This document shows, piece by piece, positions 7,395-40,817 of a stretch of 48,170 nucleotides of DNA. A model generated the notes under the pieces. It worked only from the letters and a program-made list of their open reading frames with translations. It did no database searches and was not told where the DNA came from. Location: assembly GCA_002439705.1 (NCBI GenBank), contig DJPE01000014.1:321-48490 (forward strand), in the 5' to 3' direction. A program made the position numbers and the translations under genes. Within the stretch, counting starts at the first letter, position 1; every line of letters begins with the position of its first letter. This stretch comes from Christensenella sp. UBA6420 (GTDB taxonomy: Bacteria; Bacillota; Clostridia; Christensenellales; DTU072).

Positions 7395-7700
7395 ATGAAA
7401 AAAATCATCACGGCGGTGTTGATAATCTCGTTACTTACGTTAAGTATAATCGCATTCACCGCCTGCGCTAAGACGGACGACGACGTAATAAGACTTAACG
7501 AAGTCACCCATTCGGTATTCTACGCCCCCCTGTACGTCGCTATAAACAAAGGGTACTTCGAAGAGTACGGAATCAAAATCGAGCTTACCAACGGCGGCGG
7601 CGCCGACAAGAGCATGACGGCGGTAATAAGCGGTCAGGCGGACGTAGGGCTTATGGGACCGGAAGCAGCCGTATATACGGTTACTTCCTTAGACTCGTAG
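7395..7700 (+). pseudogene. 5' fragment of an NMT1/SsuA-like ABC substrate-binding lipoprotein gene, truncated by prophage insertion
   Basis: GGAGG RBS then MKKIITAVLIISLLTLSIIAFTAC (lipobox), followed by VIRLNEVTHSVFYAPLYVAINKGYFEEYGIKIELTNGGGADKSMTAVISGQADVGLMGPEAAVY. The frame then runs 8 codons into phage DNA (TVTSLDS) and stops. The continuation is at 40098-40817. Confidence 0.85.
7662..7690. other. attL (host/phage junction)
   Basis: gaagCagccgtata at 7662-7675 matches gaagTagccgtata at 40083-40096, with a 9-bp identical core agccgtata. The phage arm tacggttacttc follows at 7676-7687. Confidence 0.75.
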
Positions 7701-7705
7701 GGTTT

Positions 7706-8578
7706 TTATTGCAAACTTTCCACTATTCTTACGATTTGTTTATTTCTTGCAACCCCTTTCGTTTTTACTGCGTAAAATGCGGTAGAGTAACTCTTAAATG
7801 CGTTAAATACCATTATCGCAAGCGTACCGAGAACGGTTACAACGCCTTGCCAATTCACGCCGAATACGAGCGACGAAGTAACGAGTGACATTACTATCGG
7901 AGCTATTGCAAACCAACCTATTTTACCGCCCGCTTTTGTAATAAACCATTTCGCGCCCGTCTTATCGGGTTCTTCGATAAGGTTATACAAACCCTTTTGT
8001 CGATATCCCGCTCCGTTCGATACGCTTAGTTCCACGAGAGAAATTTCAGGCGGTACCATTCGCTTTAACCGATACGCCATAATTCGTATTTTAAGCGGAG
8101 TTCCTTTCGGCAATTTATCGCCGACGGAATAACTTTTAACGTCATTTTGCAAAACGTTTTCTATAAACTTGCGACAAGCTTCCTTGCGCGCTTCAAAATC
8201 GGCAAGTATCTTTTCGTCCAACGCCTTTTGCGCCGCGGCAATATCTTTAATTCCTTCTATCGCGGCATCTTTCTCTTCGTCCGACTTTACGTACTTTTCC
8301 GTAAGTTTTGCGCGATTTATTCCGCTTTGACGGGTGCAATAAGTGATTACTATTCCGCCGACCCAGTTCACGATGGTAAGTAAACCGATATTCCAATTTA
8401 GAAGGTCGTTCCACTCCACCTTTATTTGACCGTTTTGACTCATAAACACGTTGCATATCACTACGACGATATAAAAGGCTACGGCGGAAAGGAAGTTTAG
8501 GACTACGTCTTTCGACGTAGCCTTTCCTTTTTTATCGTTTAAGTCTTTCGTTACTTCGTTAAACCGGAAGTCTTCCAT
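7706..8578 (-). CDS. Phage membrane protein: 2 TM, about 125-aa cytoplasmic coiled-coil-like domain, 2 TM (unknown function)
   Basis: 290 aa. Hydrophobic segments LSAVAFYIVVVICNVFM, IGLLTIVNWVGGIVITYC, IGWFAIAPIVMSLVTSSLVFGV and VVTVLGTLAIMVFNAF. 20-nt overlap with the upstream ORF. Last gene before attL. Confidence 0.6.
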   Translation of the reverse strand: MEDFRFNEVTKDLNDKKGKATSKDVVLNFLSAVAFYIVVVICNVFMSQNGQIKVEWNDLLNWNIGLLTIVNWVGGIVITYCTRQSGINRAKLTEKYVKSDEEKDAAIEGIKDIAAAQKALDEKILADFEARKEACRKFIENVLQNDVKSYSVGDKLPKGTPLKIRIMAYRLKRMVPPEISLVELSVSNGAGYRQKGLYNLIEEPDKTGAKWFITKAGGKIGWFAIAPIVMSLVTSSLVFGVNWQGVVTVLGTLAIMVFNAFKSYSTAFYAVKTKGVARNKQIVRIVESLQ

Positions 8579-9002
8579 AAGCTAACCTCCAAGCGTTTTT
8601 ATGTGAAAGCAAATCGTAAGTTCCCGTTTCTACGTCCTTATCCGCTCTCTTTTTGTAAACTTCCGAAACGGGTTCTATTACCATAGACGCCACGGCGCCG
8701 ACGAGCGATATCCCGCTTATCCAAGTCAATTCGTCCGCAAGATATCTCATAACGATAGAAATAATAAACACGACGAGAGACACCGACAGAATAATATTCT
8801 TCTTTGCAAAATCAAGCACTTTATCCTTGAACGCTATGAGCAGGAAAAAAATTATTATGTACCCGAAAAACGAAAGCGACGTACCGGCAGACTTGATATA
8901 GTTTCCTTTTTGCGTGGCAAACAAAACGAGAAGCGGAATCGCATAGACTACGAATGAGAGAACTTTATAGAACCAATATCTCGCTTTATTCGTTGCCAAC
9001 AT
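8559..9002 (-). CDS. Phage 4-TM membrane protein (holin-like by position only)
   Basis: 147 aa with four hydrophobic helices and a charged C-terminal tail. Overlaps both neighbours (17 nt and 20 nt), suggesting translational coupling. Confidence 0.55.
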   Translation of the reverse strand: MLATNKARYWFYKVLSFVVYAIPLLVLFATQKGNYIKSAGTSLSFFGYIIIFFLLIAFKDKVLDFAKKNIILSVSLVVFIISIVMRYLADELTWISGISLVGAVASMVIEPVSEVYKKRADKDVETGTYDLLSHKNAWRLAYGRLPV

Positions 9003-9720
9003 TTCCTATTTCCTCCAACTCTCGTTTAACGGTATCTACTTCCGCTACGTCTTTTGCGTTTTTAGCGTTTACTTTTTCTTCAAGTTCTCGTACTTGCTTA
9101 TATAAATTGACCAACACTTCGGCAGTCGGCGTTTTTGCCAACGCTTCCGCCGCACCCGGAGCTTCTTTCCACGCAATAGCCGCGCCTTTCAATAGATTTG
9201 ATAATTGCGCAGATAAGATTTCTTGCGTAGTCTGTAATTTATCGAGAGCAGCCGTATTGTCAACGTAATTATCGCCTACGACTTTCTTTACAACATCCGA
9301 TATGTAGTCTTTTAATTCCGATACCGTTTTTTCATTCAATACTTTTATAAAGTTATCTACGTTAAAGTCTCCGACCATCGCTTCTGCTTTGCTCGTTCTT
9401 TCTTTAAGCGCAGATAAAAACGCCGCGTATTGTTTGGCTTTTACGCCCGACTTAATAGCGGGAATAATACCCACCAATAAACCGAAAACGCCGCCTACCG
9501 CAGATATTATGAGCGGTAATACGTCGTTCTTAAATACTTCCGAGAAACTGTCCTCGGATACGGTATTTTCGGTATTATCGGAAGTAGACTCCGTATCCCC
9601 CGTAGTAGCTTCTTCCGCCGCATATACGGTCGTATGGGTGCCAATGCATAAGCTAACAGCCATTACTAAAAAAGCGCAAATTACGGCGACGTATGCGCCG
9701 ACAAATAGTTTCTTTCTCAT
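8986..9720 (-). CDS. Phage membrane protein: signal/anchor, acidic Thr/Ser/Glu-rich stretch, one TM, long alpha-helical tail (unknown function)
   Basis: 244 aa: MRKKLFVGAYVAVICAFLVMAVSLCIG..., then EEATTGDTESTSDNTENTVSED, then TM VLPLIISAVGGVFGLLVGIIPAI, then a Lys/Glu/Ala-rich helical region. Confidence 0.55.
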   Translation of the reverse strand: MRKKLFVGAYVAVICAFLVMAVSLCIGTHTTVYAAEEATTGDTESTSDNTENTVSEDSFSEVFKNDVLPLIISAVGGVFGLLVGIIPAIKSGVKAKQYAAFLSALKERTSKAEAMVGDFNVDNFIKVLNEKTVSELKDYISDVVKKVVGDNYVDNTAALDKLQTTQEILSAQLSNLLKGAAIAWKEAPGAAEALAKTPTAEVLVNLYKQVRELEEKVNAKNAKDVAEVDTVKRELEEIGNVGNE

Positions 9721-9735
9721 TTTCTTCTTTCTCCT

Positions 9736-10179
9736 TTATAACGTAATTTTGTGTTCATGAATAAGCGGAGCAACCGTTTCTTTCCATTGTTTTAACTCTG
9801 CCACCGTCGCAGTTAGTGACGCTAAATCGTTTAGTATTCCGTCGACAGACGGGTATGCAATAAGAGCGGGAACGCTATCGTTTACAGACCTTATTTCTAT
9901 GGGCGTGCAAACTATTTTTCGTCCGTTTTCCGTTTGTATTTCAAGACATATTATGCCTTTTTTAAGCCGATTCCTTTTTATTGTCGCCTCGCCGTTATTT
10001 ATAGAAAAGGTTCCCAAAAATAATTTTTGAGAAGTCCTAACTATTAAATTTGCATTTTCTTGCATAAATCCGTCGATAACTACGACTATATCTCCGCTTT
10101 CTTCGATATTAAGAAAAGAACCGTCTATTAAGACGGCTCTTCCTGCATGTTCGATATACTTAAATTTTAGTGTATTCAT
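9736..10179 (-). CDS. Hypothetical phage protein downstream of the fibre gene
   Basis: 147-aa ORF, tightly packed in the late operon. I recognise no motif. Confidence 0.5.
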   Translation of the reverse strand: MNTLKFKYIEHAGRAVLIDGSFLNIEESGDIVVVIDGFMQENANLIVRTSQKLFLGTFSINNGEATIKRNRLKKGIICLEIQTENGRKIVCTPIEIRSVNDSVPALIAYPSVDGILNDLASLTATVAELKQWKETVAPLIHEHKITL

Positions 10180-10196
10180 ATTTTTCTCCTTTTGCT

Positions 10197-10391
10197 TTAT
10201 TCATACGAATTTACAGCTTGTACGGATAGTTTTTCTTCGGCGGTCATTTCAACGATTTGTCCATTCTGCATTTTGTGTGTTATTCCGAGAGAATTATATT
10301 GTTCATCGGTCAACACTAAAGTATTAGGGGTCCCTTTGAAACGTTTGCTTTCGCAATATGCGTTATTGCTATAAACGTGTATATATTTCAT
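10197..10391 (-). CDS. Small hypothetical phage protein (position of XkdX-like or fibre-associated small proteins)
   Basis: 64-aa ORF, 10 nt downstream of the fibre gene stop. Assignment is by position only. Confidence 0.4.
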   Translation of the reverse strand: MKYIHVYSNNAYCESKRFKGTPNTLVLTDEQYNSLGITHKMQNGQIVEMTAEEKLSVQAVNSYE

Positions 10392-10401
10392 TTTACGCTC
10401 C

Positions 10402-13400
10402 TTATTCTGTTATTTCAATTTCGTTCCAATATTCTACGGTAATTCGCGGATAACTGCCGTCGGCGACCGCTGTTCTTTCCCCTGTTACGCTGCCGTCCGT
10501 TGCTATCGTATATGTCGTTTGATAGTATGTGTTAATTTTAATAACGTCGGTATCGGGGATATACGTGCAGTTGTACTCGTCGTTCCTCGTTCCCCCTGCT
10601 AATATCGTAGTTTGTGCCATCTGCACGCCGTTAAAATTATTGCTTCCCTGCGAGCCTGATACCGCGGCTACGTTCCAAACATGGGGGATGTAACCTCTGC
10701 CTGCAACAGTTATTCCACTGAAAACGTAAAAGCTTTTTGCAGTGCTGACAATGTTATAGAGTAGCTTTACGGCGGAAATATCTGTATTTCTCAAATCTAT
10801 CGTAGCCGTGTATTTAGCGAGTCCTATAGGTATTTGTTCAAATATTAATTCGTCCGTATCCGGCGCTGTCGATGAAAAATTTAATACGAATTTAATTATA
10901 CCTTCTTCACCTGCCGACGCAAGAAATGTCATATCATAGTCTATATTACCATTCCCGTCGTCACTAAGAACCATTACAGACGTAAGCGTAGCCACTACCA
11001 AACTTGACGTATCATCAGCCATATTGCAAATTACAGGTTGTCCGTTGTTAAAAGCATTTATTGCCGCTTTCGCGTTTACCCCCAAAACTCCACCTTCAGC
11101 TGTGACGGCTAAAACGTATGCTCCGCTTCCACCGCCGCCCGTACCGTCTTTTCCGTTCGTTACGGTAAAATCATACGTTTGTCCATTCGTCAGAGTTATC
11201 GTGTATGTATCCACAAGTCCTTGTGTCGCCGTTTTGACGATGCTGCTTATGCCTACTCCGTCGTCGCCTTTTGCTCCCGTTGCACCCGTCGCACCGGTAT
11301 CGCCCTTATCGCCTTTCGCTCCTGCAGTTCCTGTAATTTCAGTAATAGCGTTTACTTCCGCCGTTACTAAAGTTCCGCTAATTGCGGTTACTGTGAGCGC
11401 ACCAATAAAACTTTGTATATCAGCACTACCGGGTGTCTTAAAAACGCCTATAAAGTTCTCATTTATTGCTGGCGTTCTATTAAAATTCGATAATGATGTT
11501 GTTATCGTACTACCTATTCCTGTGGGCTCGTTACGGTCATATATAAGAAAATGACTTATTGTGAGTGCATCTAACCCATCATCACCTTGAATTCCCTGTA
11601 TGCCTTGTTTGCCTTGCGCTCCCTGCGGTCCCTGTGCACCTTGAGGACCTTGCGGTCCTTGTATCCCTTGCGCGCCTGACAAATCTGTTATGAACTCATA
11701 TTTCGTTTCGCCTTTTACGTAAAGCTGCGCGTTTTCTTCATCTTCCACGTTGCCCGTTGATATCATAACGAATTCGCCTATTAATACGCCGTCAGTTGCA
11801 TATCCTGCATTCATTGCAGATACCGATTCGTAGATTTTCGATATAGCAAAAGGAGCACCCACGTCACCTTGAGGACCTTGAATACCTTGGGGACCTTGTA
11901 TACCCTGTGGACCTTGTTCCCCCTGCGGTCCTTGTATACCTTGCTCTCCTGTCGCACCTTTCTCCCCGGTAATTTTAACAAGAGTGTTTATAGTTGCTTG
12001 TTTCCCTATGGGATTATCTGCATCCCAATTAGACACCGTAAGCCCTACGATATAGCTCGTACTATTATAACGCATTACCGTTGTAAATTCGTCACCTAAG
12101 TAAGGCATACGATTAAAGACTAAGCTGCTTATAACTACCAAATCTCCGACAGCAGGGGCATCTCCTGTACGTGTTAAAAAGCTACTTGTCGTAAGTGCAC
12201 TAAGTCCAGTAGCACCTCTTTCACCTCGTGTTCCCTGCGGTCCCTGAATACCTTGAACTCCTTGTTCTCCTTGCGGACCTCGTATTGACGCTCCGGGTTT
12301 AAAAATCGAATAATCATTTTCAGAAATGCTCGCTACTTGAGCTACATATCCGTCTTGGAACGTCACCATATCGTATTCCGTCAACGTCGTCGAGTCTGGT
12401 TTTAGCTTGCTCTTATCATATTTGTCATTATCTTTGACGTAATTTTCTTCTGCGGTATACCAATCGGTTTTAATCTTCGCCCAATTGTATACCCGAAAAA
12501 CATAATTCTTGACATCAACGTACGAAACTTGCGCCGTGTATCCGTTCCTAAAAGATATCATATCGCCGTCTTTGAGTCTACCTACAGTCCCTGGAGTCAA
12601 CGAACCTATTACGTATTCTGTACTTAATGAATTTGGAACGCAGTCAGTGCTACAAAAGTACCATTTGTACGGTGGAAACATCGTTCCCGTAAAACAAAGC
12701 AACTGTCCGCTAAACGGTTCTTTAACGCCTTCTATAAGCAAAGAACCGTCGGAACCTTTGAATATCGTATCCGCCGTAATCACACATCCACTATGCGCCG
12801 CATTTGTTTCTATCGTATATCTCTCATTAAGCACTTCCGATGTTTCTACCGTATACGTTTTTTCGGAATCGGCAGCCACTTGCGCAAAGAAATCGGCATT
12901 ATATTGTCCCGTTTGCATACTTGAAAAAGCAAGGTCGTATAACCCCGTAGCGTCTTGCATCGAACCTTGTGCTACCCACGAATCTTTAGAGAATGAAATG
13001 ACAGTCATTCCGTTCACCGTTTCAGGTTCTGTTGCGGTAGGAATACGGAACAGAGCAGTAGTGCCGTCAGAATAATACTTAGTAAAGTAAGTATACCCGT
13101 CGTTTGAAGTCTTCGACGTTATGTCTACGAGAACTCTGCGTACGGTCACGTTCTCTACTTTAGAAACTCGCTCATCGAGATTTTGAAGATACGCTTCGTC
13201 TTGCGCTAAATACGCCAATATTAAGTCGTAGACGTCGGTACTCGGGTCGGGCACCATATCTTTCGGAAGTTGAACCGAAGACTCTACGAGAAAATTGAAC
13301 ATATAGCTCGTTTGGTTACGGTTAGGATAAGTCGTGGCGACGATAGAACATTGAACGTTCCCCGCTACGTTCGTTACCGCCGTGGGCAACGTATAAGTCC

Positions 13401-13662
13401 AACAATTTACCCCGTATTCGGCAGGAACAGTCTTCAACAACGTCATCGGAGCGTAGCCTATATTCGTTAACGCTTTCGTTGCCCTTACCGTCGTCGTTCC
13501 CAACGGCGCCAAGTTTCCGTCGGGAAGAATAAAGCCTATCTTCATCGAAGTGTTTGCCGGGAACGGGGAATAAACGTGAATTTCCGAAACGTTGCTACTT
13601 TGATATATTCGTTCGGGTGTAACCACTTTTGCTTCTCCCGTAAGTGAAAGAAAAATATCCAT
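10402..13662 (-). CDS. Tail fibre / receptor-binding protein with four collagen-like (Gly-X-Y) segments
   Basis: 1086 aa. GPQGEQGVQGIQGPQGTRGERGATG; GEKGATGEQGIQGPQGEQGPQGIQGPQGIQGPQGDVG; GAQGIQGPQGPQGAQGPQGAQGKQGIQGIQGDDG; GTAGAKGDKGDTGATGATGAKGDDG. Paralogous globular modules lie between them. Confidence 0.8.
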   Translation of the reverse strand: MDIFLSLTGEAKVVTPERIYQSSNVSEIHVYSPFPANTSMKIGFILPDGNLAPLGTTTVRATKALTNIGYAPMTLLKTVPAEYGVNCWTYTLPTAVTNVAGNVQCSIVATTYPNRNQTSYMFNFLVESSVQLPKDMVPDPSTDVYDLILAYLAQDEAYLQNLDERVSKVENVTVRRVLVDITSKTSNDGYTYFTKYYSDGTTALFRIPTATEPETVNGMTVISFSKDSWVAQGSMQDATGLYDLAFSSMQTGQYNADFFAQVAADSEKTYTVETSEVLNERYTIETNAAHSGCVITADTIFKGSDGSLLIEGVKEPFSGQLLCFTGTMFPPYKWYFCSTDCVPNSLSTEYVIGSLTPGTVGRLKDGDMISFRNGYTAQVSYVDVKNYVFRVYNWAKIKTDWYTAEENYVKDNDKYDKSKLKPDSTTLTEYDMVTFQDGYVAQVASISENDYSIFKPGASIRGPQGEQGVQGIQGPQGTRGERGATGLSALTTSSFLTRTGDAPAVGDLVVISSLVFNRMPYLGDEFTTVMRYNSTSYIVGLTVSNWDADNPIGKQATINTLVKITGEKGATGEQGIQGPQGEQGPQGIQGPQGIQGPQGDVGAPFAISKIYESVSAMNAGYATDGVLIGEFVMISTGNVEDEENAQLYVKGETKYEFITDLSGAQGIQGPQGPQGAQGPQGAQGKQGIQGIQGDDGLDALTISHFLIYDRNEPTGIGSTITTSLSNFNRTPAINENFIGVFKTPGSADIQSFIGALTVTAISGTLVTAEVNAITEITGTAGAKGDKGDTGATGATGAKGDDGVGISSIVKTATQGLVDTYTITLTNGQTYDFTVTNGKDGTGGGGSGAYVLAVTAEGGVLGVNAKAAINAFNNGQPVICNMADDTSSLVVATLTSVMVLSDDGNGNIDYDMTFLASAGEEGIIKFVLNFSSTAPDTDELIFEQIPIGLAKYTATIDLRNTDISAVKLLYNIVSTAKSFYVFSGITVAGRGYIPHVWNVAAVSGSQGSNNFNGVQMAQTTILAGGTRNDEYNCTYIPDTDVIKINTYYQTTYTIATDGSVTGERTAVADGSYPRITVEYWNEIEITE
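11257..12279 (-). repeat. Coding collagen-like triplet repeats (4 blocks) interleaved with duplicated globular modules
   Basis: Blocks at about 12205-12279, 11857-11967, 11575-11676 and 11257-11331. The modules LSALTTSSFLTRTGDAPAVGD...NRMPYLGDEF and LDALTISHFLIYDRNEPTGIG...NRTPAINENF are paralogous. Confidence 0.85.
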
Positions 13663-13720
13663 AAATTTGTCTCCTTTTATGTATTTACGCTCCCGAAAAT
13701 CGAGAGCGTATCGTTTGAAA

Positions 13721-16438: not shown

Positions 16439-16467
16439 CTCTCCTTACTCCTTAAAATTTTGTATAT

Positions 16468-16493
16468 AAAAAAAGCACTCTTTCGAGTGCCTT
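16468..16493 (-). terminator. Rho-independent terminator closing cassette A
   Basis: Minus strand reads GCACTC-GAAA-GAGTGC followed by TTTTTTT. It is nearly the same hairpin as at 27982-28009. Confidence 0.7.
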
Positions 16494-16515
16494 ATTCTAT
16501 TTTTCGTAAGTTCCT

Positions 16516-16788: not shown

Positions 16789-16808
16789 TTTTCTCTCTCC
16801 ATAATATT
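16516..16808 (-). repeat. 293-bp direct repeat, copy A (partner at 28403-28695)
   Basis: Aligned by eye. Identical runs of about 37, 35 and 47 nt, for example gtcttgaatttctttttcagttatcatttttctctctccataatatt. Confidence 0.85.
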
Positions 16809-16919
16809 GTGTATTGAAAACCATGTTCGCTATCCAATAATTTAACAAAATATTTCTATTCTGTACATATTTTTAATGTGACCCTGAATATCAAGAGTTT
16901 CTTCACATCTCATAATATA

Positions 16920-17876: not shown

Positions 17877-17877
17877 A

Positions 17878-31873: not shown

Positions 31874-31934
31874 AATACTTTTGCTTTAAGTTCTTCTCTT
31901 CCGATTTTACGTTCATCCGTTACGCTATCTGTCG

Positions 31935-32756: not shown

Positions 32757-32774
32757 CGTGTTTTTTTAGACCTC

Positions 32775-33320
32775 CTAAACGTTTAATATTTCTTTGACTT
32801 TGTTCCCCAGTATGTCGACTATTAACTGCGGAGAAGTCTGTTTATCCGTAAAATGGACGTGTAAATCGTATCGACTCATGAAGGCTAACAAAGAACCTTT
32901 CATCGCTTTCGACGTAACGAGAGAATTGTAATTTCCGGCGTTAATCGAATTCCAACTTCCACTCTCTATAACGAGATGTTTCTCTGCGCCTTTCATCTTT
33001 TCAAGTTCGTTCTCGAAACGGTCACGGTTACGACCTAAATTCCCTGCTAATTCTTCTATCGAATTCTTGCGTTCAACGAGTATTCCGCCTTCCTTGACGA
33101 GATTAAGATATATATCTTTTGCTATCCCTAATTCCGCGTTTTGGGGTATCATAACCGAATAATCACCGCACGGCAACGCTCTCGTTTTGTATTTCAGTTT
33201 CTTCTTCTCAAAATACGTTAAGATATGTTCGTTCGCTTGTTCCCTGGTATCTACAAGGAAGACGAGAGAGTGCAATATTTCGCTCGCTTCTTTCGGCGTA
33301 TAGTAATATAGATTAAGCAC
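32775..33320 (-). CDS. ERCC4 (XPF/Mus81)-type nuclease
   Basis: LVDTREQ...GDYSV...VERKNSIEELAGNL matches the ERCC4 GDxn-ERK signature. Confidence 0.7.
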   Translation of the reverse strand: MLNLYYYTPKEASEILHSLVFLVDTREQANEHILTYFEKKKLKYKTRALPCGDYSVMIPQNAELGIAKDIYLNLVKEGGILVERKNSIEELAGNLGRNRDRFENELEKMKGAEKHLVIESGSWNSINAGNYNSLVTSKAMKGSLLAFMSRYDLHVHFTDKQTSPQLIVDILGNKVKEILNV

Positions 33321-34083
33321 GTTTACCTTCCGTTACCGCGCATAGAGCGGCTATCAATTCGTTTGCTTCTGCAAGAGTCAACGCTTCTACTTTCTGCTTG
33401 CCGAACTTCTTGCTTATCCAAGCTATCACCTTATCAGTCATATTCGCTTCTTGCGCGTAATACCATATATCGTTTATAACGTCTTCATCAATGGTTACAG
33501 GCTTTTTCATCGGCTTCCTAGCAGACTGGTCGGAAAGGTCGTCAACTTGCGTTTTACGACCTGATTTATCAGTCCGCGGATACCTGAAAGCTAACGCTCC
33601 GTTTTGGTCCACTATTTCCAACTCCGAAATAGCTCCCGTATCGGTATACGCTATTCGCTTAACCGTAAAGTCGTAATATCCGTCCATCTTATGCGTTTTG
33701 CCGTCCTGCTTCGTCGGTACGGACACTTTTATAGTCGGCGCAGTATACAACTCTCTCCCGATACCAACGCAGAACCCTGCTCTTTTTAGAGCGTCGCTCG
33801 CTTCGCCTTTGACCTGATTACCTTCTGCGTCCTTACGGCTTTCTATACCGTTAGACCATTTCCAAACGAACGGAGAATTACTATCTTCTCTTATCCCGAT
33901 TCCGCAATACAAGACGTCGTCGATATCTTTGTAATCGTTTTGCCAGTTCATAGGTCCGAACGTTTCGTCGAGAATAGCCATATCGGTACGGGCGTTTTTA
34001 TAAAGCAATAAATACGCTCCGCCGTTTACGACCTGCTTTACTTTGGTTTCTATCTCGTCGGCTCTTAATTTTCGAATTTGCAT
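33313..34083 (-). CDS. Rad52/Sak-type single-strand annealing protein
   Basis: KGEASDALKRAGFCVGIGRELY is a signature typical of phage Rad52-family SSAPs. Confidence 0.75.
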   Translation of the reverse strand: MQIRKLRADEIETKVKQVVNGGAYLLLYKNARTDMAILDETFGPMNWQNDYKDIDDVLYCGIGIREDSNSPFVWKWSNGIESRKDAEGNQVKGEASDALKRAGFCVGIGRELYTAPTIKVSVPTKQDGKTHKMDGYYDFTVKRIAYTDTGAISELEIVDQNGALAFRYPRTDKSGRKTQVDDLSDQSARKPMKKPVTIDEDVINDIWYYAQEANMTDKVIAWISKKFGKQKVEALTLAEANELIAALCAVTEGKRA

Positions 34084-34092
34084 TTGTACCTC

Positions 34093-34611
34093 CTATTTAA
34101 TCTGAATATTTCTATGCGTTTCCACGATTGCTCCCGTAACCGCTTCTCCCGCTTTAATAGCTTTCTTAATCGCCGCAAGGTCGGGTTTCTTTTCAAGTTT
34201 AGTTATCACGTATTGAGTGGGCAAGAGTTCTTCGTCGTATACGTTCACGCTTTGGCTATTTCGGAACGATACGGCGTGTTTCGCGTTTTCGAAACGGTCG
34301 CGCCCGGCAAAAGCAAGCGCTTCACTTAGATACGCTTTAAGGCTTTCTATCTTCTTCTCTTTCGCTTTTCTTCGTTCGGCAAGGGCTTTTTCTTGCTCTT
34401 TAAGCGCGTTAACCAAAACGGAAAGGTTTTTTACGTAGCTTACGATATTGTCTACTTTCGTATCGAAAGACACGTTAAGTTCTTGCAAATATTCGTCCAC
34501 TTTGATTTGGTCGATTTCACCGTCTTCGTTTATGCAACGTTCGGTAAAACCTTGTTCAAAAATTGTATTCATTTCGTTAGAAATTTGAAAGAGTGTAAAA
34601 TCATTATTCAT
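34093..34611 (-). CDS. Siphovirus Gp157-like protein
   Basis: 172 aa, coiled-coil centre, C-terminal KKPDLAAIKKAIKAGEAVTGAIVETHRNIQIK typical of the family. Adjacent to the SSAP gene. Confidence 0.7.
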   Translation of the reverse strand: MNNDFTLFQISNEMNTIFEQGFTERCINEDGEIDQIKVDEYLQELNVSFDTKVDNIVSYVKNLSVLVNALKEQEKALAERRKAKEKKIESLKAYLSEALAFAGRDRFENAKHAVSFRNSQSVNVYDEELLPTQYVITKLEKKPDLAAIKKAIKAGEAVTGAIVETHRNIQIK

Positions 34612-35066
34612 ATAGCTTTCTCCTTTACGTATTCGGAAAATTCCGATAAATAAGTTTTTATATACGCCTTTAAGCGTTTATTTAAGTGTTCTGCGGCTTG
34701 CGGTATCGACACGGCTTCTTCCAAAGCGGTCACGAGAATTTCTTTTCGCTCCGCATCGTCTAAAAGAGTGTTTATAAGTTCGTCCGTAATTCCTTGTTCT
34801 TCGGTAAAATCAAGCGCTGTCGACAAGTCAGCCTTGTCGTTAAGACACTTTACGCAAATACCGTCGTAAACGTCGTCTTCGTCGTACCACTCGCCGCATT
34901 CTTCGCATTGTTTTGCCGCTACGAGGTCGGTGGAATGACAAAACGGACATTCGTCTTCGTAATCGTATCCGCTCGCCAAAGTATTCCCTCTTACTTCGTC
35001 GTATCTTCGGCTTTGCTCCGCTTCGCTTTCGGGAAAAGCCGTTTCGCAATTTCTACAAAAGTACAT
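34608..35066 (-). CDS. Zinc-ribbon protein, hypothetical
   Basis: CRNC...CPFC...CEEC...CVKC cysteine pairs. 152 aa. Confidence 0.5.
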   Translation of the reverse strand: MYFCRNCETAFPESEAEQSRRYDEVRGNTLASGYDYEDECPFCHSTDLVAAKQCEECGEWYDEDDVYDGICVKCLNDKADLSTALDFTEEQGITDELINTLLDDAERKEILVTALEEAVSIPQAAEHLNKRLKAYIKTYLSEFSEYVKEKAI

Positions 35067-35123
35067 TTATACCTCCGATGTTTTTCTTATTCGCTCTACG
35101 CTACGTTCCGTTAATTAAAGTTT

Positions 35124-35258
35124 TTAGTCTTTCTCCGTCCCTTCCGTATCGGCATACGTCGGCTTTTTCCTTAACGGCGCTGCCTTCCGTAGTTTTGCAA
35201 AAGCGATAGACAAAGCTAAAATTTCAAATATCGTTATAAATATAAGTACGAGTTTCAT
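35124..35258 (-). CDS. Small membrane peptide (44 aa), below the ORF-track threshold
   Basis: My translation: MKLVLIFITIFEILALSIAFAKLRKAAPLRKKPTYADTEGTEKD. ATGA overlap with the upstream small ORF. Confidence 0.4.
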   Translation of the reverse strand: MKLVLIFITIFEILALSIAFAKLRKAAPLRKKPTYADTEGTEKD

Positions 35259-35356
35259 TTGTGCATTTTCTCAAACAACACGGCTACCATTACTCCAAGC
35301 GCAATTTCTACGCTTCCGCCGAGAATAACTAATAGCACGTAAAGAACTATCCGCAT
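35255..35356 (-). CDS. Small membrane peptide (33 aa), below the ORF-track threshold
   Basis: My translation: MRIVLYVLLVILGGSVEIALGVMVAVLFEKMHK. TAATG overlap with the upstream ORF. Confidence 0.4.
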   Translation of the reverse strand: MRIVLYVLLVILGGSVEIALGVMVAVLFEKMHK

Positions 35357-35610
35357 TACTTCACCCCATCGTACGTTGCGAAGTATTCCGCCATAAGTTC
35401 TTGTCTGCGTTTCTCAGCTCTTTCATACTTCGCGATTTTCCTTGCTTCTTCTGCATATTCGGGATAGAAAATTCGACGGGCTTCAAGTTGAACTTCAATA
35501 TTGTTCTCCGGGCGAATAATGCGACCGTTACGGAGCAATTCTTCCTCGCTCATTACCGTACCGTCTGCAAATTCGCACGTAATATTAAGTTGTCTTACAC
35601 GCTTTTTCAT
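35356..35610 (-). CDS. Hypothetical early protein (84 aa)
   Basis: ORF only. Confidence 0.45.
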   Translation of the reverse strand: MKKRVRQLNITCEFADGTVMSEEELLRNGRIIRPENNIEVQLEARRIFYPEYAEEARKIAKYERAEKRRQELMAEYFATYDGVK

Positions 35611-35657
35611 TGTTTCTCCGTTTTGTTTTCTATATGCCGTCCTATGCGTTTACGTTC

Positions 35658-35867
35658 CTATTTCTTGAAAAGATATTCGAGGGTTAAGTCCGGGAAGTAA
35701 GTTTCGCGTATTTTAAACATTTCTCCGGACTTAAATTCACTTTTACCGAGCATTTTTAGATTAAGTCCGCGTCCCGTGATATTAAGCAACTTTGCTAATT
35801 CCGTTTGAGTAATCTTTCGTTCTTTTAGTTCCGAATATAAATTCTTATACATTTTCTTTAACTCCAA
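35658..35867 (-). CDS. Cro-like XRE-family HTH regulator
   Basis: 69 aa with ITQTELAKLLNITGRGLNLKMLGK. Met6 (start at 35852) is an alternative start. Confidence 0.6.
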   Translation of the reverse strand: MELKKMYKNLYSELKERKITQTELAKLLNITGRGLNLKMLGKSEFKSGEMFKIRETYFPDLTLEYLFKK

Positions 35868-36648
35868 AGTGTATTTTTATAAGCTCAATAAGAGCCTTGT
35901 ATTCCCTTCCGTATACGTTATTTGCGTGTGTTTCCTCTACTTTTGCGGCGAATTCATTAAGCTCGCCCGTAAAGCAACCGCAATTTACACTTAGTCCGCC
36001 ACTTTTGTTTTTAAATACAGTCGTTGTATCAATTCTTGAACCCATATTGGTAATCCAAAGAATATCGGCATCACGACAAACAAAAGCATCTCCACAAACC
36101 TTGGCATCACCGTGAACAGAACCACAGGCACGCACCCAAGCCTCACCGCAAACCTTGGCATTCCCATAAATCTGGGCATTGCCACAAATCCAAGCATTAC
36201 CGCAAATCTTAGCCTCACCGTGAACCCAAGCATCGCCGTGAACCAGAGCATAGCCGCAAACTTGAGCATTTCCGTAAACCCAAGCACTACCGAAAACCTT
36301 AGCATCTCCGTGAACCAATGCACTGCCGTAAACCCGAACAGTCTCGAAAACATGAGCATTGCCGCAAACTTGGGCATCTCCGTAAATTTGCGCGTTGTCA
36401 TAGACTTGAGAATTACTATAAACCCAAGCGTTGTCTCGAACCTTGGCATCACCATAAACCTTGGCATTGTCGTAAACTTTGGCATTGTCGTAAACCCAAG
36501 CATTGCCATATTGCGAAAGATTCTCTTCTTTCTCTATCCATCCGCCTAAATCGCCTTTCTTTACGTTGCCAAAGTCCCTGAGTGCTTCTATCTGATAGAA
36601 CGTGTGTCCGAGCCATACTTTTTTGTTTTCCGTTAAACGATATTTCAT
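35845..36648 (-). CDS. Hexapeptide-repeat (beta-helix/solenoid) protein, first gene of the leftward early transcript
   Basis: 267 aa. N-terminal KKVWLGHTFYQIEALRDFGNVKKGDLGGWIEKEENLSQ, then 25 consecutive hexads (YGNAWV YDNAKV YDNAKV YGDAKV ... CGDAFV CRDADI), then a C-terminal domain ...NCGCFTGELNEFAAKVEETHANN.... Confidence 0.8.
   Translation of the reverse strand: MKYRLTENKKVWLGHTFYQIEALRDFGNVKKGDLGGWIEKEENLSQYGNAWVYDNAKVYDNAKVYGDAKVRDNAWVYSNSQVYDNAQIYGDAQVCGNAHVFETVRVYGSALVHGDAKVFGSAWVYGNAQVCGYALVHGDAWVHGEAKICGNAWICGNAQIYGNAKVCGEAWVRACGSVHGDAKVCGDAFVCRDADILWITNMGSRIDTTTVFKNKSGGLSVNCGCFTGELNEFAAKVEETHANNVYGREYKALIELIKIHFGVKENV
36061..36510 (-). repeat. 18-bp-periodic coding repeat (25 hexapeptide units)
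   Basis: aa 47-196 of the ORF above. All three frames on both strands stay open here, which is a repeat artefact in the ORF track. Confidence 0.9.
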
Positions 36649-36811
36649 CTTACTTTCTCCTTTATGTTTTGGAAATTTTAATATCCAAATTTGGAAATCA
36701 ACTATAGTATATATCCAAGTTTGGAAGATGTCAAGAGTTTTTTTGAAAAATTCTTTACTTTTTGGAAATTATATTCCATACTAAACATAATCTATCTATG
36801 AAGGTAAATTA
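36649..36811. promoter_or_regulatory. Divergent promoter/operator region of the lysis-lysogeny switch
   Basis: Perfect palindrome tccaaatttgga (36684-36695), near-palindrome tccaagtttgga (36714-36725), and TTTGGAAAT half-sites at 36668, 36690 and 36761. -35/-10-like hexamers occur on both strands (TTGAAA at 36743; TTGATT...TAAAAT on the minus strand flanking the palindrome). Confidence 0.6.
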
Positions 36812-37108
36812 ATGGAAATAATTGAAATTAAAAAATATCTCAAAGACAATAAAATTACTTACGAAAAGTTGAGCGAACTATCCCAAGTTCCTTTAAACAC
36901 ATTAAAAAACATATTCAGCGGTCGTACGCCGACTCCCCGCATAGATACCATTCAATCCATCGAAAAAGCTCTCGGTTTGGATAACAACTCTTCTTCTGCC
37001 GCTAATACCATAAATACAGAGTTGCTTAATCTTATTCCACTGCTTACTCCTCAACAAGTTGAACAAACTGTCGACTTCGTTAAATTCTTACTTTCTAAAA
37101 ACTCTTGA
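36812..37108 (+). CDS. XRE-type HTH protein, repressor-NTD paralogue 1 (no peptidase domain)
   Basis: MEIIEIKKYLKDNKITYEKLSELSQVPLNTLKNIFSGRTPTPRIDTIQSIEKALGLD, plus a short tail ending DFVKFLLSKNS. Confidence 0.75.
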   Translation: MEIIEIKKYLKDNKITYEKLSELSQVPLNTLKNIFSGRTPTPRIDTIQSIEKALGLDNNSSSAANTINTELLNLIPLLTPQQVEQTVDFVKFLLSKNS

Positions 37109-37129
37109 CGTAGAAAAATTCTTTACTTT

Positions 37130-37447
37130 ATGGAAATAATTGAAATAAAAAAATATCTTAAAAACAATAAAATAACTTACAAAAAGTTGAGTGCCTTATC
37201 AGGTATCCCACTCACTACTCTTAAATATATATTCAGCGGTCGTACTTCAACCCCACGTATAGACACCATTCAGGCCATCGAAAAAGCTCTTAATTTTGAT
37301 AATCAGCGGGCTAAAATTGAACCTAATTTTATCTCCGACAAACAGCGTCTTCATTACCTTATAGAACAACTTCCCGACGAACTCGTTCTCCAAGTCTGTG
37401 ATTACATTTATTTTTTGCTTTCAAAAAATTCTCTATATAAACTTTAA
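37130..37447 (+). CDS. XRE-type HTH protein, repressor-NTD paralogue 2 (no peptidase domain)
   Basis: MEIIEIKKYLKNNKITYKKLSALSGIPLTTLKYIFSGRTSTPRIDTIQAIEKALNFD, with tail ...DYIYFLLSKNS. No obvious RBS. The ATG lies inside a copy of the operator segment. Confidence 0.65.
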   Translation: MEIIEIKKYLKNNKITYKKLSALSGIPLTTLKYIFSGRTSTPRIDTIQAIEKALNFDNQRAKIEPNFISDKQRLHYLIEQLPDELVLQVCDYIYFLLSKNSLYKL

Positions 37448-37462
37448 AGGAGCTAATTCCAT

Positions 37463-38062
37463 ATGGATATAACATTAATAAAAAAACATTTAAAAGCTAA
37501 TAAAATAACCTATGCTGAATTATCTGAAATGTCTGGCGTTCCTATTCAAACCATACAAAAAGTCTTCTCCGGCAATACTAAACATCCCCGCATAGACACC
37601 ATTCAGTCCATAGAGAAAGCTCTCGGTCTGGATAAGTCGTTCAGTATTTACGATATCCCCGGCATAGAACCTTTACCCGAATTCCGCTCGGTTCCTCTCG
37701 TCGGAACCATCGCTTGCGGCACGCCGACACTCGCAGAAGAGAATATCGAAGAATACGTCAAAATGAGCGACAACGTACGCGCCGATTTTGCTTTACGCTG
37801 CAAGGGCGACAGTATGATTAACGCTCGTATATTCGACGGTGATATCGTATTTATCAGACAGCAACCCGACGTCGAAAACGGCGAGATAGCAGCCGTTCTT
37901 ATAGAGAACGAAGCAACGCTTAAGCGCATATATAAATACGGCTCACGCCTTGAACTGCGCGCTGAAAATCCTACGTTTGCTCCGCTCAATTTCGAGGGCG
38001 AACAACTAAATGAAATTCGCATACTCGGAAAAGCCGTTGCTTTCATATCAACGGTTAGATAA
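37463..38062 (+). CDS. CI/LexA-like phage repressor (HTH plus S24 autopeptidase)
   Basis: The same HTH family as the two upstream ORFs, then the S24 domain: VPLVGTIACGTP, GDSM (catalytic Ser), and LKR with the Lys partner. AAAGGAG RBS. Confidence 0.85.
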   Translation: MDITLIKKHLKANKITYAELSEMSGVPIQTIQKVFSGNTKHPRIDTIQSIEKALGLDKSFSIYDIPGIEPLPEFRSVPLVGTIACGTPTLAEENIEEYVKMSDNVRADFALRCKGDSMINARIFDGDIVFIRQQPDVENGEIAAVLIENEATLKRIYKYGSRLELRAENPTFAPLNFEGEQLNEIRILGKAVAFISTVR

Positions 38063-38070
38063 ACATTAAA

Positions 38071-38104
38071 TTGACAACAAGTATAATGTACGCTATAATG
38101 TACA
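38071..38104 (+). promoter_or_regulatory. Consensus sigma-A promoter with a TGTAC(G/A) operator pair for the TA-integrase unit
   Basis: TTGACA (38071-38076), 17 nt, TATAAT (38094-38099). tgtacg at 38087 and tgtaca at 38099 are 12 bp apart. The direct repeat tataatgtac occurs twice. Confidence 0.75.
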
Positions 38105-38131
38105 TAGAATAAATATAGGAGGTAATATATT

Positions 38132-38386
38132 ATGTCTATAACTAACGCAACGACTTTACGCAAGAGTCTATTTAGCTATTTGGATGCGGCAGCTGTAAAC
38201 GATGAAAAGATAATCGTGACGACAAAAAACGGAAATGCGGCTATTGTAAGCGAAGAATACCTGCGTAATTTAGAAGAAACTTGTTACCTTTATTCTATAC
38301 CGGGCGTCCGTGATAGCATTATCGAAGGCGTAAACACGCCTTTGTCAGAATGCTCGCAGATCGATTGGAAAAAGGTGCTGAAATGA
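38132..38386 (+). CDS. yefM: Phd/YefM-family antitoxin
   Basis: 84 aa. ...LRKSLFSYLDAAAVNDEKIIVTTKNGNAAIVSEEYLRNLEETCYL is typical of YefM. AGGAGG RBS. ATGA overlap with the toxin gene. Confidence 0.8.
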   Translation: MSITNATTLRKSLFSYLDAAAVNDEKIIVTTKNGNAAIVSEEYLRNLEETCYLYSIPGVRDSIIEGVNTPLSECSQIDWKKVLK

Positions 38387-38643
38387 GCTATACCATATTA
38401 TTCACAAAACAAGGAGAAAAGGACTTATTAAAAATAGCTCAAAGTAATTTTAAGTCAAAAGCATCCAGGCTTTTGGCTGTTCTTGAAGAAGATCCTTATT
38501 CTCCGCCTTGTGAAAAACTAATAAATTTAGATTCTACATTTTCGAGACGTATAAACATTCAACATAGACTCGTTTACAAAGTCTACGAAGAGGAAAAAAT
38601 CGTCGTAATTATACGAATGTGGACTCATTACAGTGACAATTAA
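38383..38643 (+). CDS. yoeB: YoeB/Txe-family toxin
   Basis: MSYTILFTKQGEKDL...FSRRINIQHRLVYKVYEEEKIVVIIRMWTHY is the YoeB signature. I moved the start to the ATG overlapping the antitoxin stop. Confidence 0.8.
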   Translation: MSYTILFTKQGEKDLLKIAQSNFKSKASRLLAVLEEDPYSPPCEKLINLDSTFSRRINIQHRLVYKVYEEEKIVVIIRMWTHYSDN

Positions 38644-38650
38644 TTCGGGA

Positions 38651-40051
38651 ATGAATGCTGCACTATATATTCGCGTATCTACGCTTGAACAAGCAACAAA
38701 AGGATATTCTCTCGAAGCGCAACGAGAGAGACTTGAAGCATACGCAAAAAGCCAAAACTACGAGATAACGGGCGTATACACCGACGACGGTTATTCGGGC
38801 AAAAACTTATACCGCCCCGCTATCGAGCGACTGATAGAGCACGTTAAACTCGGACTAATCAACGTCGTACTCGTATACAAGCTTGACCGTTTAACGCGTA
38901 GAGTCCGCGACGTACTCGAACTCGTAGAAGACGTTTTCGCGCCTAACAACGTTCAACTTTATTCTTTACAGGAAAATATCGACGTTTCATCGCCTTTCGG
39001 CCGCGCGGCGTTAAAACTCAACGCTACGTTCTCGGAACTTGAAAGAGAAACTATCGTCGAGCGTATGATTATGGGAAAAGAACAAGCCGTAAAACAAGGT
39101 AAGTATCTTTGCCCAGGTAAAGTTGCGCCTTTCGGTTACGTCCGCAACGCCGAGACGAAACAATTCGATATCGACCCCGTCCGCGCTGATATGGTAATAA
39201 AAATATTCGACCTTTACATACAAGGTTATTCCTTTCGAAAATTGTACGATTATTGTAAAGCGAATTTCAACGATTCGTATTTCAATAATCCTATGTGCTG
39301 TAAAAGTATTATTAATCGTACTATGTACACCGGATTTTTCACTTATAAAGGCGAGCTTTATAAAGGAACGAATTACTCCCCTATTATATCCTACGACACA
39401 TATCTCCAAGCGCAGGCTAAAAAAGACGCCAATAAAAGCGTACGCACACGCTCAACTTCTCCCTATCTGCTGACGGGACTTATCTATTGCGCTCAATGCG
39501 GAAATCGTTACGTCGGCAAAACTTATAAACATAACGAAGGGACCAAAGAATACGTTTATCGCGCGTACGGTTGTGCAGCGCGAGTAAAGAACGATAAGGA
39601 CTATCACCCTGCCAAATGCACTAACTATATACACACGGCGGAAGACCTTGAAAAAAGAGTAATCGACGTAATGAAGTCGTTGCAATTCGATGGGTTCGTC
39701 GCAGGAAAATACGTATCCGGCAAAATCGAAAACGTACGCATCGCTATATCTGAATTAAAAGAGAAAAAGGAAAAGTTACTCGATTTATACCTAAGCGATA
39801 TAATAGACAAAAATAGCTATGCAAAGAAAACGTCTGATATAGATAAAGAAATCGAAAAAAATGAAATTATAATAAAAGAAGAAGAAAAACGCGTTAAAGA
39901 AACGCCCACTATAACCATCGACTATTTGAAAGAACAAAGAAACCGCTTTGACGATATGTCGCAAACAGAAAAACGCAAATTTATGGCGGTTATTATAGAT
40001 AAGATAATTCTTAACGGCAACGATATTGTCGTAAAATTCAAAGTTAAATAA
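38651..40051 (+). CDS. Large serine recombinase (phage integrase)
   Basis: MNAALYIRVSTLEQ (catalytic Ser), resolvase domain with VLVYKLDRLTRR, recombinase domain, zinc ribbon CAQCGNRY...C, and a C-terminal coiled coil. The gene ends 37 bp from the att core. The track start (GTG 38633) is an alternative. Confidence 0.9.
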   Translation: MNAALYIRVSTLEQATKGYSLEAQRERLEAYAKSQNYEITGVYTDDGYSGKNLYRPAIERLIEHVKLGLINVVLVYKLDRLTRRVRDVLELVEDVFAPNNVQLYSLQENIDVSSPFGRAALKLNATFSELERETIVERMIMGKEQAVKQGKYLCPGKVAPFGYVRNAETKQFDIDPVRADMVIKIFDLYIQGYSFRKLYDYCKANFNDSYFNNPMCCKSIINRTMYTGFFTYKGELYKGTNYSPIISYDTYLQAQAKKDANKSVRTRSTSPYLLTGLIYCAQCGNRYVGKTYKHNEGTKEYVYRAYGCAARVKNDKDYHPAKCTNYIHTAEDLEKRVIDVMKSLQFDGFVAGKYVSGKIENVRIAISELKEKKEKLLDLYLSDIIDKNSYAKKTSDIDKEIEKNEIIIKEEEKRVKETPTITIDYLKEQRNRFDDMSQTEKRKFMAVIIDKIILNGNDIVVKFKVK

Positions 40052-40082
40052 TTTTTTCTTAATTTTTTTCACGAACCTAAAA

Positions 40083-40100
40083 GAAGTAGCCGTATACGTA
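40083..40100. other. attR (phage/host junction)
   Basis: gaagtagccgtata then the host sequence cgta..., with core agccgtata at 40088-40096. Confidence 0.75.
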
Positions 40101-40817
40101 AAGACCGGCGGCAGCAACAACTATCCCGTAGTATTCGGGCAGCTCACTAAATGCGACGGGGCTTTTCTTATAGGCAGGAAAGCCGAACCCGATTTCAAAT
40201 GGACCGACCTTAAAGGAAAAGAAATAATAGGCGGCAGAAAAGGCGGTATGCCCGCAATGAGTCTCGAACACGCGCTTAACAAAAACAATCTCGTCGTAGG
40301 CACCGACCTTAATCTTAATTACGACGTACAGTTCGACCTTATTACGGCGGCGTTCGAAGGCGGAACCGGCGACTACTGCACTATGTTCGAACCGAACGCA
40401 AGTCAGTACGAAGCTCTCGGCAAAGGCTATATCGTGGCAAGCGTAGGCAAAGAAGCGGGAGAAATCCCCTACACTTGCTTTATGGCGACCAAGGAATATA
40501 TAGCGGCTAATCCCGAAAAAATAACGGGATTTATGAAAGCCGTGATAAAGGGTATCGACTTCGTAATCAACGGTAATCCCGACGAAATAGCCGAAGCGTT
40601 GAAGCCGAGTTTCCCTACGACCGACGACGCTCTTCTTAAAAAATCCGTCGAAAGCTACAAGGCGATAAACGCGTATATGACCAACCCCGTAATGACCGAA
40701 GAATCTTTCGAACACATGCTCGATATTCTCGAAGAAAGCGGCAGCATAACGCAGAGAATAGCTTTCTCCGACGTAATCGACAATTCGATAGCGGAAAAAA
40801 TACTTGCGGAAAAATAA
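40086..40817 (+). pseudogene. 3' fragment of the split SBP gene
   Basis: The in-frame reading from the core gives (VAVY)VKTGGSNNYPVVFGQLTKCDGAFLIGRKAEPDFKWTDLKGKEIIGGRKGGMPAMSLEHAL...AEKILAEK. There is no start or RBS of its own. The cognate ATPase gene follows 30 bp downstream. Confidence 0.85.

Follow-up and report, generated by a model that had tools for sequence, protein, structure and literature searches.

A large serine recombinase prophage splits an ABC-importer lipoprotein gene at a single tyrosine codon in a gut Christensenellales bacterium: probable ordinary lysogeny at a recurrent target

Excision of the large serine recombinase (LSR) elements SPbeta and skin is programmed in the sporulating, terminally differentiating mother cell through sporulation-specific expression of a recombination directionality factor (RDF) (PMC5499854, PMC5025042), and active lysogeny at comK has been shown experimentally in Listeria, where excision is uncoupled from virion production (PMC7397523). 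For the integrase of the Listeria phage A118, direct tests identified the asymmetric central dinucleotide as the sole determinant of orientation, and a symmetric version gave both orientations (PMC3556126); papers cited there report the same rule for Bxb1 and phiC31. Recombining sites synapse equally well in either alignment (PMC3783163). An LSR prophage that disrupts a gene is a routine and well-understood arrangement. The prophage described here is of this kind and lies in a 48,170-nucleotide stretch, hereafter the window, of contig DJPE01000014.1 from the Christensenella sp. UBA6420 assembly, where it splits the gene for a substrate-binding protein (SBP), a lipoprotein of the SsuA/NMT1 family that belongs to an ABC importer. 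Comparison with relatives adds two features to the original finding, a dedicated bacterial attachment site (attB) at one Tyr codon that appears to be used throughout a clade of integrases, and an apparently palindromic crossover that seems to operate in both orientations with a strong bias towards one. The split gene, the prophage, its attachment sites and the rest of the importer operon occupy the following positions:

7395..7700, + strand: SBP lipoprotein 5' fragment, in which codons 1-93 and the TA of Tyr94 (7395-7675) are host-derived and 7676-7700 is phage
7648..7703, unstranded: attL, made up of the host B arm, the central TA (7674-7675) and the phage P' arm TACGGTTACTTCCTTAGACTCGTAGGG
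7676..40096, unstranded: prophage, 32,421 bp with one copy of the TA counted
38633..40051, + strand: large serine recombinase (Resolvase 1.3e-39, Recombinase, Zn_ribbon_recom; phrog_95 integrase 7e-113)
40065..40122, unstranded: attR, made up of the phage P arm ACGAACCTAAAAGAAGTAGCCGTA, the central TA (40095-40096) and the host B' arm beginning CGTAAAGACCGGCGG
40097..40817, + strand: SBP 3' fragment, from the third base of the Tyr94 codon to codon 333 and the stop
40847-41605, + strand: ABC ATPase of the NitT/TauT/SsuABC type (Pfam ABC_tran)
41578-42390, + strand: permease of the NitT/TauT/SsuABC type (Pfam BPD_transp_1)

The 5' open reading frame (ORF) of the SBP begins at ATG 7395 with a good ribosome-binding site, encodes a signal peptide with a lipobox-like FTAC (the lipoprotein-type leader is MKKIITAVLIISLLTLSIIAFTAC) and reads through to GLMGPEAAVY, after which seven phage-derived codons (TVTSLDS) lead to a stop at 7698-7700. 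The same codon phase resumes at 40098 as VKTGGSNNYPVVFGQLTKCDG and runs to the stop at 40815-40817; ahead of 40248 no in-frame start codon occurs in the 3' fragment. With the join marked by a caret, the left junction is GAAGCAGCCGTATA^TACGG and the right junction is GAAGTAGCCGTATA^CGTAAAG; they have nine identical bases in common, AGCCGTATA, and the extended form GAAG(C/T)AGCCGTATA agrees at 13 of 14 positions. Joining 7395-7675 to 40097-40817 yields exactly 1002 nt, or 333 aa (94+239), and both Pfam NMT1 (5e-19) and NMT1_2 span the join.

A search of 5.8 billion protein clusters returned intact 333-aa homologues (P0001-P0009, about 29 contigs) that match the joined protein without gaps at 97-99% identity and 100% coverage, and the prophage-free contigs that carry them keep the synteny of the window (TopA, DprA, a ComM-like Mg-chelatase and a 668-aa protein on one side of the join; SBP, ATPase, permease, a protein of about 320 aa and PolC on the other). 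When a synthetic empty site, composed of window positions 1-7675 and 40097-48170, was aligned to relatives by blastn, a single unbroken high-scoring segment pair covered the join, with 92.4% identity for L001 and 90.4% for L005 and L006, and all eight empty sites (L001-L008) read GCAGCCGTATACGTAAAGACC. The join falls in the conserved motif GPE(A/T)AVY^VK; in an alignment of 120 SBP homologues there is no indel near it, and G88, P89, E90 and Y94 are invariant. The exact junctions and the empty-site alignments confirm, far beyond chance, that the prophage splits a once-intact SBP gene. Most of this had been anticipated in a sequence-only reading of the window, which had described two fragments in one codon phase, an in-frame 333-aa product of a size normal for NMT1/SsuA-type proteins, ATPase and permease genes directly after the 3' fragment, and an LSR as the integrase. 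Each of these points stands: the intact relatives are also 333 aa long and have an identical layout, they are colinear with the joined protein, and their gene does not end naturally near PEAAVY.

The occupied site is also found repeatedly. Both attL and attR are present on further, independent contigs, which come from several human-gut samples and assemblers, and the exact 101-aa truncated product was called on six contigs from at least three named samples. Samples that bear the lysogen are ERZ808243, SRR5325872, SRR22974108 and SRR1747021. L009 is 100% identical to the window, which is part of ERZ808243 NODE_95 (111.5 kb), and the same prophage occupies the same site in L010 and L049 (100% identity) and in L048 (93%). 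Since about 29 contigs of the species-level group carry the intact gene and about 6-8 are occupied, the prophage is polymorphic rather than fixed. An exact 35-mer of the reconstructed attB had no match in the GTDB species genomes; as the species representatives differ at synonymous sites, the empty sites were found through the protein instead.

The observed junctions and the two sites reconstructed from them read as follows:

attL: GAAGCAGCCGTATATACGGTTAC
attR: GAAGTAGCCGTATACGTAAAGAC
attB: GAAGCAGCCGTATACGTAAAGAC
attP: GAAGTAGCCGTATATACGGTTAC

At attL, the end of the host sequence coincides exactly with the point at which the window and the empty sites L001-L008 part, and the empty sites equal the left part of attL plus the right part of attR with nothing gained or lost, as for a conservative exchange with a short attP. 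As reconstructed, attP forms an imperfect inverted repeat, GAAGTAGCCGTA-TA-TACGGTTACTTC, or in its longer form ACGAACCTAAAAGAAGTAGCCGTA-TA-TACGGTTACTTCCTTAGACTCGT, in which GAAGTAxCCGTA extends for 12 nt on each side of the central TA; the cleavage position was assigned from this symmetry. The same 12+2+12 geometry is present in L017 and L020, two relatives in the attP configuration, and L020 matches the integrated L018 at 100% identity as far as the TA and diverges immediately beyond it. The central TA, which provides the first two bases of the Tyr94 codon, is the symmetry centre of the three attP sites and the junction dinucleotide in 22 of 22 related integrated prophages. It is thus not the non-palindromic dinucleotide that is typical of studied LSRs, a feature that does not define membership of the family. 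Over its inner 12 nt the P arm repeats the host B arm and keeps the SBP frame as E-V-A-V-Y (window 40065-40097), and across relatives the P arm co-varies with the host, being GCCGTA where the host has AVY^VK and ACGCTT where it has TLY^CH.

The idea that the phage supplies a replacement end for the gene was rejected, since the P' arm contributes seven codons followed by a stop, and a start codon is missing from the P arm here. In L013 and L016 (5456-5470) the P arm does contain an ATG (ATGTGTCTTTTTGAAGTAGCC), so that gene callers report a 247-aa leaderless SBP fragment. For the phage of P0154 (L044, which is L020, and L045), some scaffolds have the attP form, and three contigs break off about 100 nt beyond the integrase, a pattern that would fit the coexistence of integrated and free forms in those samples, as expected of an active phage.

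The translation start of the integrase is more likely ATG 38651 (466 aa, as in P0121) than GTG 38633. Its N-terminal domain matches that of TP901-1 (PDB 3bvp, 7e-32) and residues 137-463 align to the C-terminal domain of the A118 integrase (PDB 4kis). The residues R14, V15, S16 and T17 and the cysteines C286, C289, C314 and C329 are invariant in 30 relatives, and the protein has the full LSR plan of an N-terminal catalytic domain with the nucleophilic serine and a C-terminal recombinase domain with a zinc ribbon. Its identity to any phage integrase in INPHARED (GenBank phage records) is at most 36%, and as a single query it found no relative in IMG/VR. No RDF was identifiable, in that PHROGs and Pfam gave no excisionase-type match; different RDFs lack homology to each other. 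Candidates for this role are small ORFs of the early region, in 28162-29057, 31285-31873 and 34608-35867.

The remainder of the prophage has the organisation of a tailed phage. Its GC content is 42.0% against 46.6% and 45.9% in the flanks, and its 44 ORFs make it 94.6% coding, with the late, early and replication genes on the - strand and the lysogeny module on the + strand at the right end:

7706..9720, - strand: three multi-pass membrane proteins (290, 147 and 244 aa) at the P' end beside attL, recognised by eye from long hydrophobic stretches
10402..13662, - strand: tail fibre with collagen-like repeats, 1086 aa (Pfam Collagen 2e-18; PHROG tail and tail-fibre matches down to 2e-37)
23009..24463, - strand: minor capsid protein 2 (MuF-like) with a C-terminal Ntox50 domain (Pfam Phage_min_cap2 1e-15, Ntox50 1e-23)
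24460..27942, - strand: packaging module, with the next three genes
24460-26004, - strand: portal (phrog_533 1e-32)
26013-27470, - strand: large terminase (Terminase_3 7e-11)
27451-27942, - strand: small terminase (phrog_309 4e-32)
29700..34611, - strand: replication region, with the next five genes (PHROG matches)
29700-31319, - strand: DNA methyltransferase
31935-32756, - strand: replication initiator
32775-33320, - strand: ERCC4 nuclease
33313-34083, - strand: Erf-like annealing protein
34093-34611, - strand: Gam-like protein
36812..38062, + strand: lysogeny regulators, with the next two entries (Pfam)
36812-37108 and 37130-37447, + strand: two small helix-turn-helix (HTH) proteins
37463-38062, + strand: CI/LexA-like repressor with HTH and S24 peptidase domains (phrog_4 8e-35)
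38071..38099, + strand: sigma-70-type promoter-like site, TTGACA-17-TATAAT, 12/12, a consensus match only
38132..38643, + strand: type II toxin-antitoxin pair, with the next two genes (Pfam, above curated cut-offs)
38132-38386, + strand: Phd/YefM antitoxin (PhdYeFM_antitox, 40.2 bits against a cut-off of 29.8)
38350-38643, + strand: YoeB/ParE-type toxin (YoeB_toxin, 29.0 bits against a cut-off of 27)

A 905-aa protein on the - strand is in the tape-measure position. The three membrane proteins at the left end matched no Pfam, PHROG or NCBIfam model and are possibly a lysis or holin-like cassette; no endolysin, holin, major capsid protein or major tail protein was recognisable by Pfam, PHROGs or NCBIfam in 7706-10391 or 16516-22588 on the - strand, and these searches left most of the structural genes without a match. 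A megablast comparison of 24 kb of the prophage with 50,697 phage records gave no match, and to judge from these searches the structural module is very divergent from described phages. No tRNAs were found.

The locus is best explained, with a probability of roughly 0.85, by ordinary lysogeny of a temperate, probably SOS-inducible, tailed phage in a gut Christensenellales bacterium. The LSR would recombine a quasi-palindromic attP of about 50 bp with an attB inside the SBP coding sequence, crossing over at the TA of the Tyr94 codon. The insertion truncates the binding protein to a 101-aa stub and cuts the 3' fragment, ATPase and permease from their promoter, so the importer would be knocked out while the prophage is resident. 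Excision by the integrase and a phage RDF, expected on induction, would restore the 333-aa ORF exactly because serine recombination is conservative; its timing, its triggers and any benefit to the host are presumptive. The phage modules and the LexA-like repressor support this account, as do the 19 relatives that lie beside an SBP 3' fragment, the three that lie beside an inverted 5' fragment and the existence of attP forms of two of them (L017 and L020). Several points weigh against it. Neither an endolysin nor a major capsid protein was found by Pfam or PHROGs, so that lytic competence is read from the organisation of the genes, and neither the attP nor a free form of this phage was found in IMG/VR, the JGI metagenome contigs or the 50,697 phage records. 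Excision is itself read from sequence alone, which would leave room for regulated, non-lytic excision.

The target site extends well beyond this species. Relatives of the integrase with 74, 71, 60, 60 and 50% identity on metagenome contigs lie directly upstream of the 3' fragment of an NMT1-type SBP gene that is followed by ATPase and permease genes, and when one genome of each GTDB species was searched with a profile, 19 more loci emerged (L022-L040; L021 is L011 found again) with identities down to about 44%, in Christensenella, Catabacter, Pumilibacter, Neochristensenella and unnamed Clostridia. In tblastn searches with SBPs the junction was at residue 90-94 in every informative case. One Tyr codon appears to be the target of LSRs with identities down to 44% in about 22 Christensenellales and other Clostridia genomes, a pattern that is new here. 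Site choice is probably a property of the integrase lineage, judging from the use of the same codon in diverged hosts and from P arms that track the host B arm. In L039 (2501-3787) a truncated integrase, matching residues 4-405 before an early stop, still lies beside an SBP 3' fragment and may be what is left of a decaying prophage at this site. The genes for DprA and a ComM-like Mg-chelatase/AAA protein (2569-5168, - strand) are just upstream in the window and intact, the occupied gene being 2 kb away; ComM-type genes have been reported as the commonest LSR target (PMC10083194).

Because the TA centre is palindromic, both orientations are expected, going by the studied LSRs, and both were found. 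The integrase reads into the SBP 3' fragment in 19 loci, as in the window, and the prophage is inverted in three (L033, L037 and L040), each seen at one junction. In these three the same TA links the integrase-proximal arm to the 5' fragment in reverse complement, as in L040, which has AGAAGTTGTTATG-TA-CACGCCCGTCTCAGGTCCCATAAG, the reverse complement of LMGPETGVY. The repressor of L040 is co-oriented with the integrase, so that at least there the whole phage is inverted. An origin of the inverted loci in one lineage with a rearranged integrase gene was rejected, since they do not cluster in a neighbour-joining tree. The bias is significant for all loci (3/22, binomial p=0.0009) and after close pairs are collapsed (3/17, p=0.013). 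One phage, 100% identical in its DNA, is found in two host backgrounds 2.6% apart and is oriented alike in both, as it is in all 20 of its integrated contigs. It is a tentative proposal, to which we give somewhat less than even odds, that these enzymes form a clade of LSRs with a palindromic TA crossover to which the rule of polarity by the dinucleotide alone would not apply: both orientations would be used at the same Tyr codon, one about six times more commonly, and an identical phage would have integrated independently and in the same orientation into two host strains. The candidate causes of the bias are an undescribed determinant in the arms or the protein and strong selection on lysogens, acting either on transcription that leaves the lysogeny module and enters the transporter genes or through avoidance of antisense transcription from the host promoter into the repressor.

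Read-out from the prophage is the basis of one rival explanation, in which the prophage rewires the operon. The prophage separates the ATPase and permease genes (40847..42390) from their native promoter, and the integrase is downstream of the sigma-70-like consensus promoter and the toxin-antitoxin genes. That this unit is co-directional with the two transporter genes, as the sequence-only reading had noted, is correct. Scans for sigma-70-type consensus covered 35300-43500 and 7000-8700, and a pattern scan found no terminator-like site on the + strand before 40847; the stop codon of the integrase is only 45 nt from the junction. Read-through from the promoter at 38071-38099 into the ATPase and permease genes is therefore plausible, to judge from these scans, and a constitutive promoter could transcribe through attR into the SBP 3' fragment and the two genes behind it and give lysogeny-linked expression that matters to the cell. 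The permissive orientation is over-represented (19/22), which is weak support, as avoidance of antisense from the host SBP promoter into the repressor-integrase module explains the bias equally well. No import function is known for an ATPase and a permease that lack their binding protein, and the 3' fragment lacks an early start codon. The geometry is impossible in the three inverted relatives and so is not conserved in the phage group, and the promoter and terminator calls are consensus scans only. We consider it unlikely that the operon has been rewired in a way that matters.

Concerning the importer itself, an NMT1-fold SBP with a signal peptide and an adjacent ATPase and permease place it in the SsuA/TauA/NMT1 type, a placement that does not reach to the substrate: the nearest NCBIfam models are SaoA/SaoP, taurine and sulfonate models, all below their curated cut-offs (SsuA_fam 76 bits against 163.5). 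Rfam at gathering thresholds gave nothing in the whole window, hence no recognised riboswitch upstream of the SBP that would hint at a substrate. The operon is flanked by a gene for a 669-aa protein with OmpL47-type beta-barrel domains (5172-7181, - strand) and by one for a 324-aa protein without a family match (42436-43410, + strand), in place of which a DHDPS gene follows the operon in more distant hosts.

A second rival holds that the knock-out is adaptive, either for the phage, if the lipoprotein is a phage receptor and its loss gives superinfection exclusion, or for the lysogen, if loss of the importer pays in the gut; selection of the site would then be for its phenotype as well as for its conserved sequence. 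The gene and the codon destroyed are the same for all of the about 22 related phages, though the SBPs are only about 44-78% identical, and the SBP is predicted, by eye, to be a surface-anchored lipoprotein. The proposal is purely inferential, however; the invariant residues G88, P89, E90 and Y94 alone explain a durable attB, and the phage also has ordinary immunity through its repressor as well as defence cargo. An adaptive knock-out is rather improbable.

The cargo lies in a variable slot between repressor and integrase (window 38071-38643). In the window it holds the Phd/YoeB pair, whose ORFs overlap at 38350-38386 and which has the features of the Phd/YefM-YoeB family to judge from its domains. 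Relatives have an Abi_2 (abortive infection) gene here (L012 2999-4000, L013 3022-3993, L016 3026-3997), or GIY-YIG, RNase_T and small resolvase genes (L046 1-2473, where the integrase is 99% identical), or an empty slot (L011, L017 and L018). Two further observations concern the gene content. The MuF-like head protein with its Ntox50 domain (23009-24463, - strand) is of the polymorphic-toxin type. The three consecutive genes at 36812-38062 share paralogous HTH domains at their N-termini, that of the repressor being 66% and 61% identical to the two small upstream proteins, and the trio looks like a tandem duplication of a DNA-binding module.

A third rival, raised by the sequence-only reading, is an excision-controlled gene switch, in which excision without killing would turn the importer back on and the phage might reintegrate, as in active lysogeny of phi10403S at comK or in the regulation of spsM by SPbeta. 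The interrupted ORF would be restored exactly on paper, the enzyme class is shared with SprA, SpoIVCA and A118 Int (PMC5499854, PMC7397523, PMC3556126), and the target is conserved across the whole LSR clade, so the association is old. An LSR clade dedicated to one gene is common, however, and is no sign of switching (PMC10083194). In its make-up the element resembles a complete, inducible phage, with packaging, tail and replication modules and an S24 repressor of the type linked to SOS lytic induction, rather than a skin-like remnant. Known LSR switches rely on sporulation-specific RDF expression, and the RDF here is represented by candidate ORFs at most. Most strains of the species are simply without the prophage, and neither an attB nor an attP of this strain was found in any collection searched; nor did the restored 333-aa ORF have an exact match in a set of about 15 billion proteins. 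Restoration of the gene on excision is automatic for any LSR prophage that lies inside a gene and so is not evidence of regulation. The proposal of a switch is left unsupported, and we regard it as very improbable. Finally, a chimeric contig that joins phage to bacterial genome, conceivable for a metagenome assembly, is effectively refuted by the recurrence of both junctions described above and by their meeting at one shared dinucleotide with textbook attP symmetry.

What ordinary lysogeny at this site contributes is mainly a phage lineage not yet characterised, together with a defined attB/attP pair for the Christensenellales, gut bacteria in which genetic manipulation is difficult. Of more use is the wider pattern. 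It provides about 20 natural, co-varying triplets of integrase, attP and attB aimed at one codon, and its palindromic-looking crossover, used in nature with a strong bias in orientation, is relevant to the way in which serine integrases, widely used as tools of genome engineering, choose polarity. If the unsupported switch were nevertheless true, active lysogeny would be extended to nutrient transport in a non-sporulating gut commensal.

Compared with known systems, the target gene resembles the SsuA, TauA and NMT1(THI5) binding proteins in its NMT1 and NMT1_2 domains, its lipoprotein-type leader and its adjacent ATPase and permease, and differs from those families in NCBIfam scores far below the equivalog and subfamily cut-offs. 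The clade resembles the LSR clusters of Durrant et al. 2022 (PMC10083194; the Mg-chelatase/ComM and prolyl isomerase sites, compare their Fig. 1e,f), in which diverged LSRs (about 44-100% here) share one intragenic site; their multi-target example has a TT core, whereas the core here is TA, and the text of their supplements makes no mention of an NMT1 or substrate-binding target. As with SPbeta at spsM (SprA/SprB) and skin at sigK (SpoIVCA, and the C. difficile skin with its RDF), an LSR element splits a host ORF that precise excision would rebuild. Skin is degraded, whereas the present element looks like a complete phage; its target is not a developmental gene, and neither an RDF nor a developmental promoter was identifiable, the promoter search being limited to the sigma-70 scans of the two regions given above. 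A further parallel is with the Listeria phages A118 and phi10403S at comK, likewise temperate siphovirus-type prophages inside a protein-coding gene that excision restores. The C-terminal architecture of the LSR is shared (residues 137-463 against 4kis), and in both systems attP is pseudo-palindromic and attB has little symmetry. Active lysogeny has been demonstrated at comK, whereas the present locus is known from its DNA sequence. The Listeria target is a competence regulator and the target here is the binding protein of a transporter, and where an asymmetric GG alone sets the orientation of A118 (PMC3556126), the centre here is a palindromic TA.

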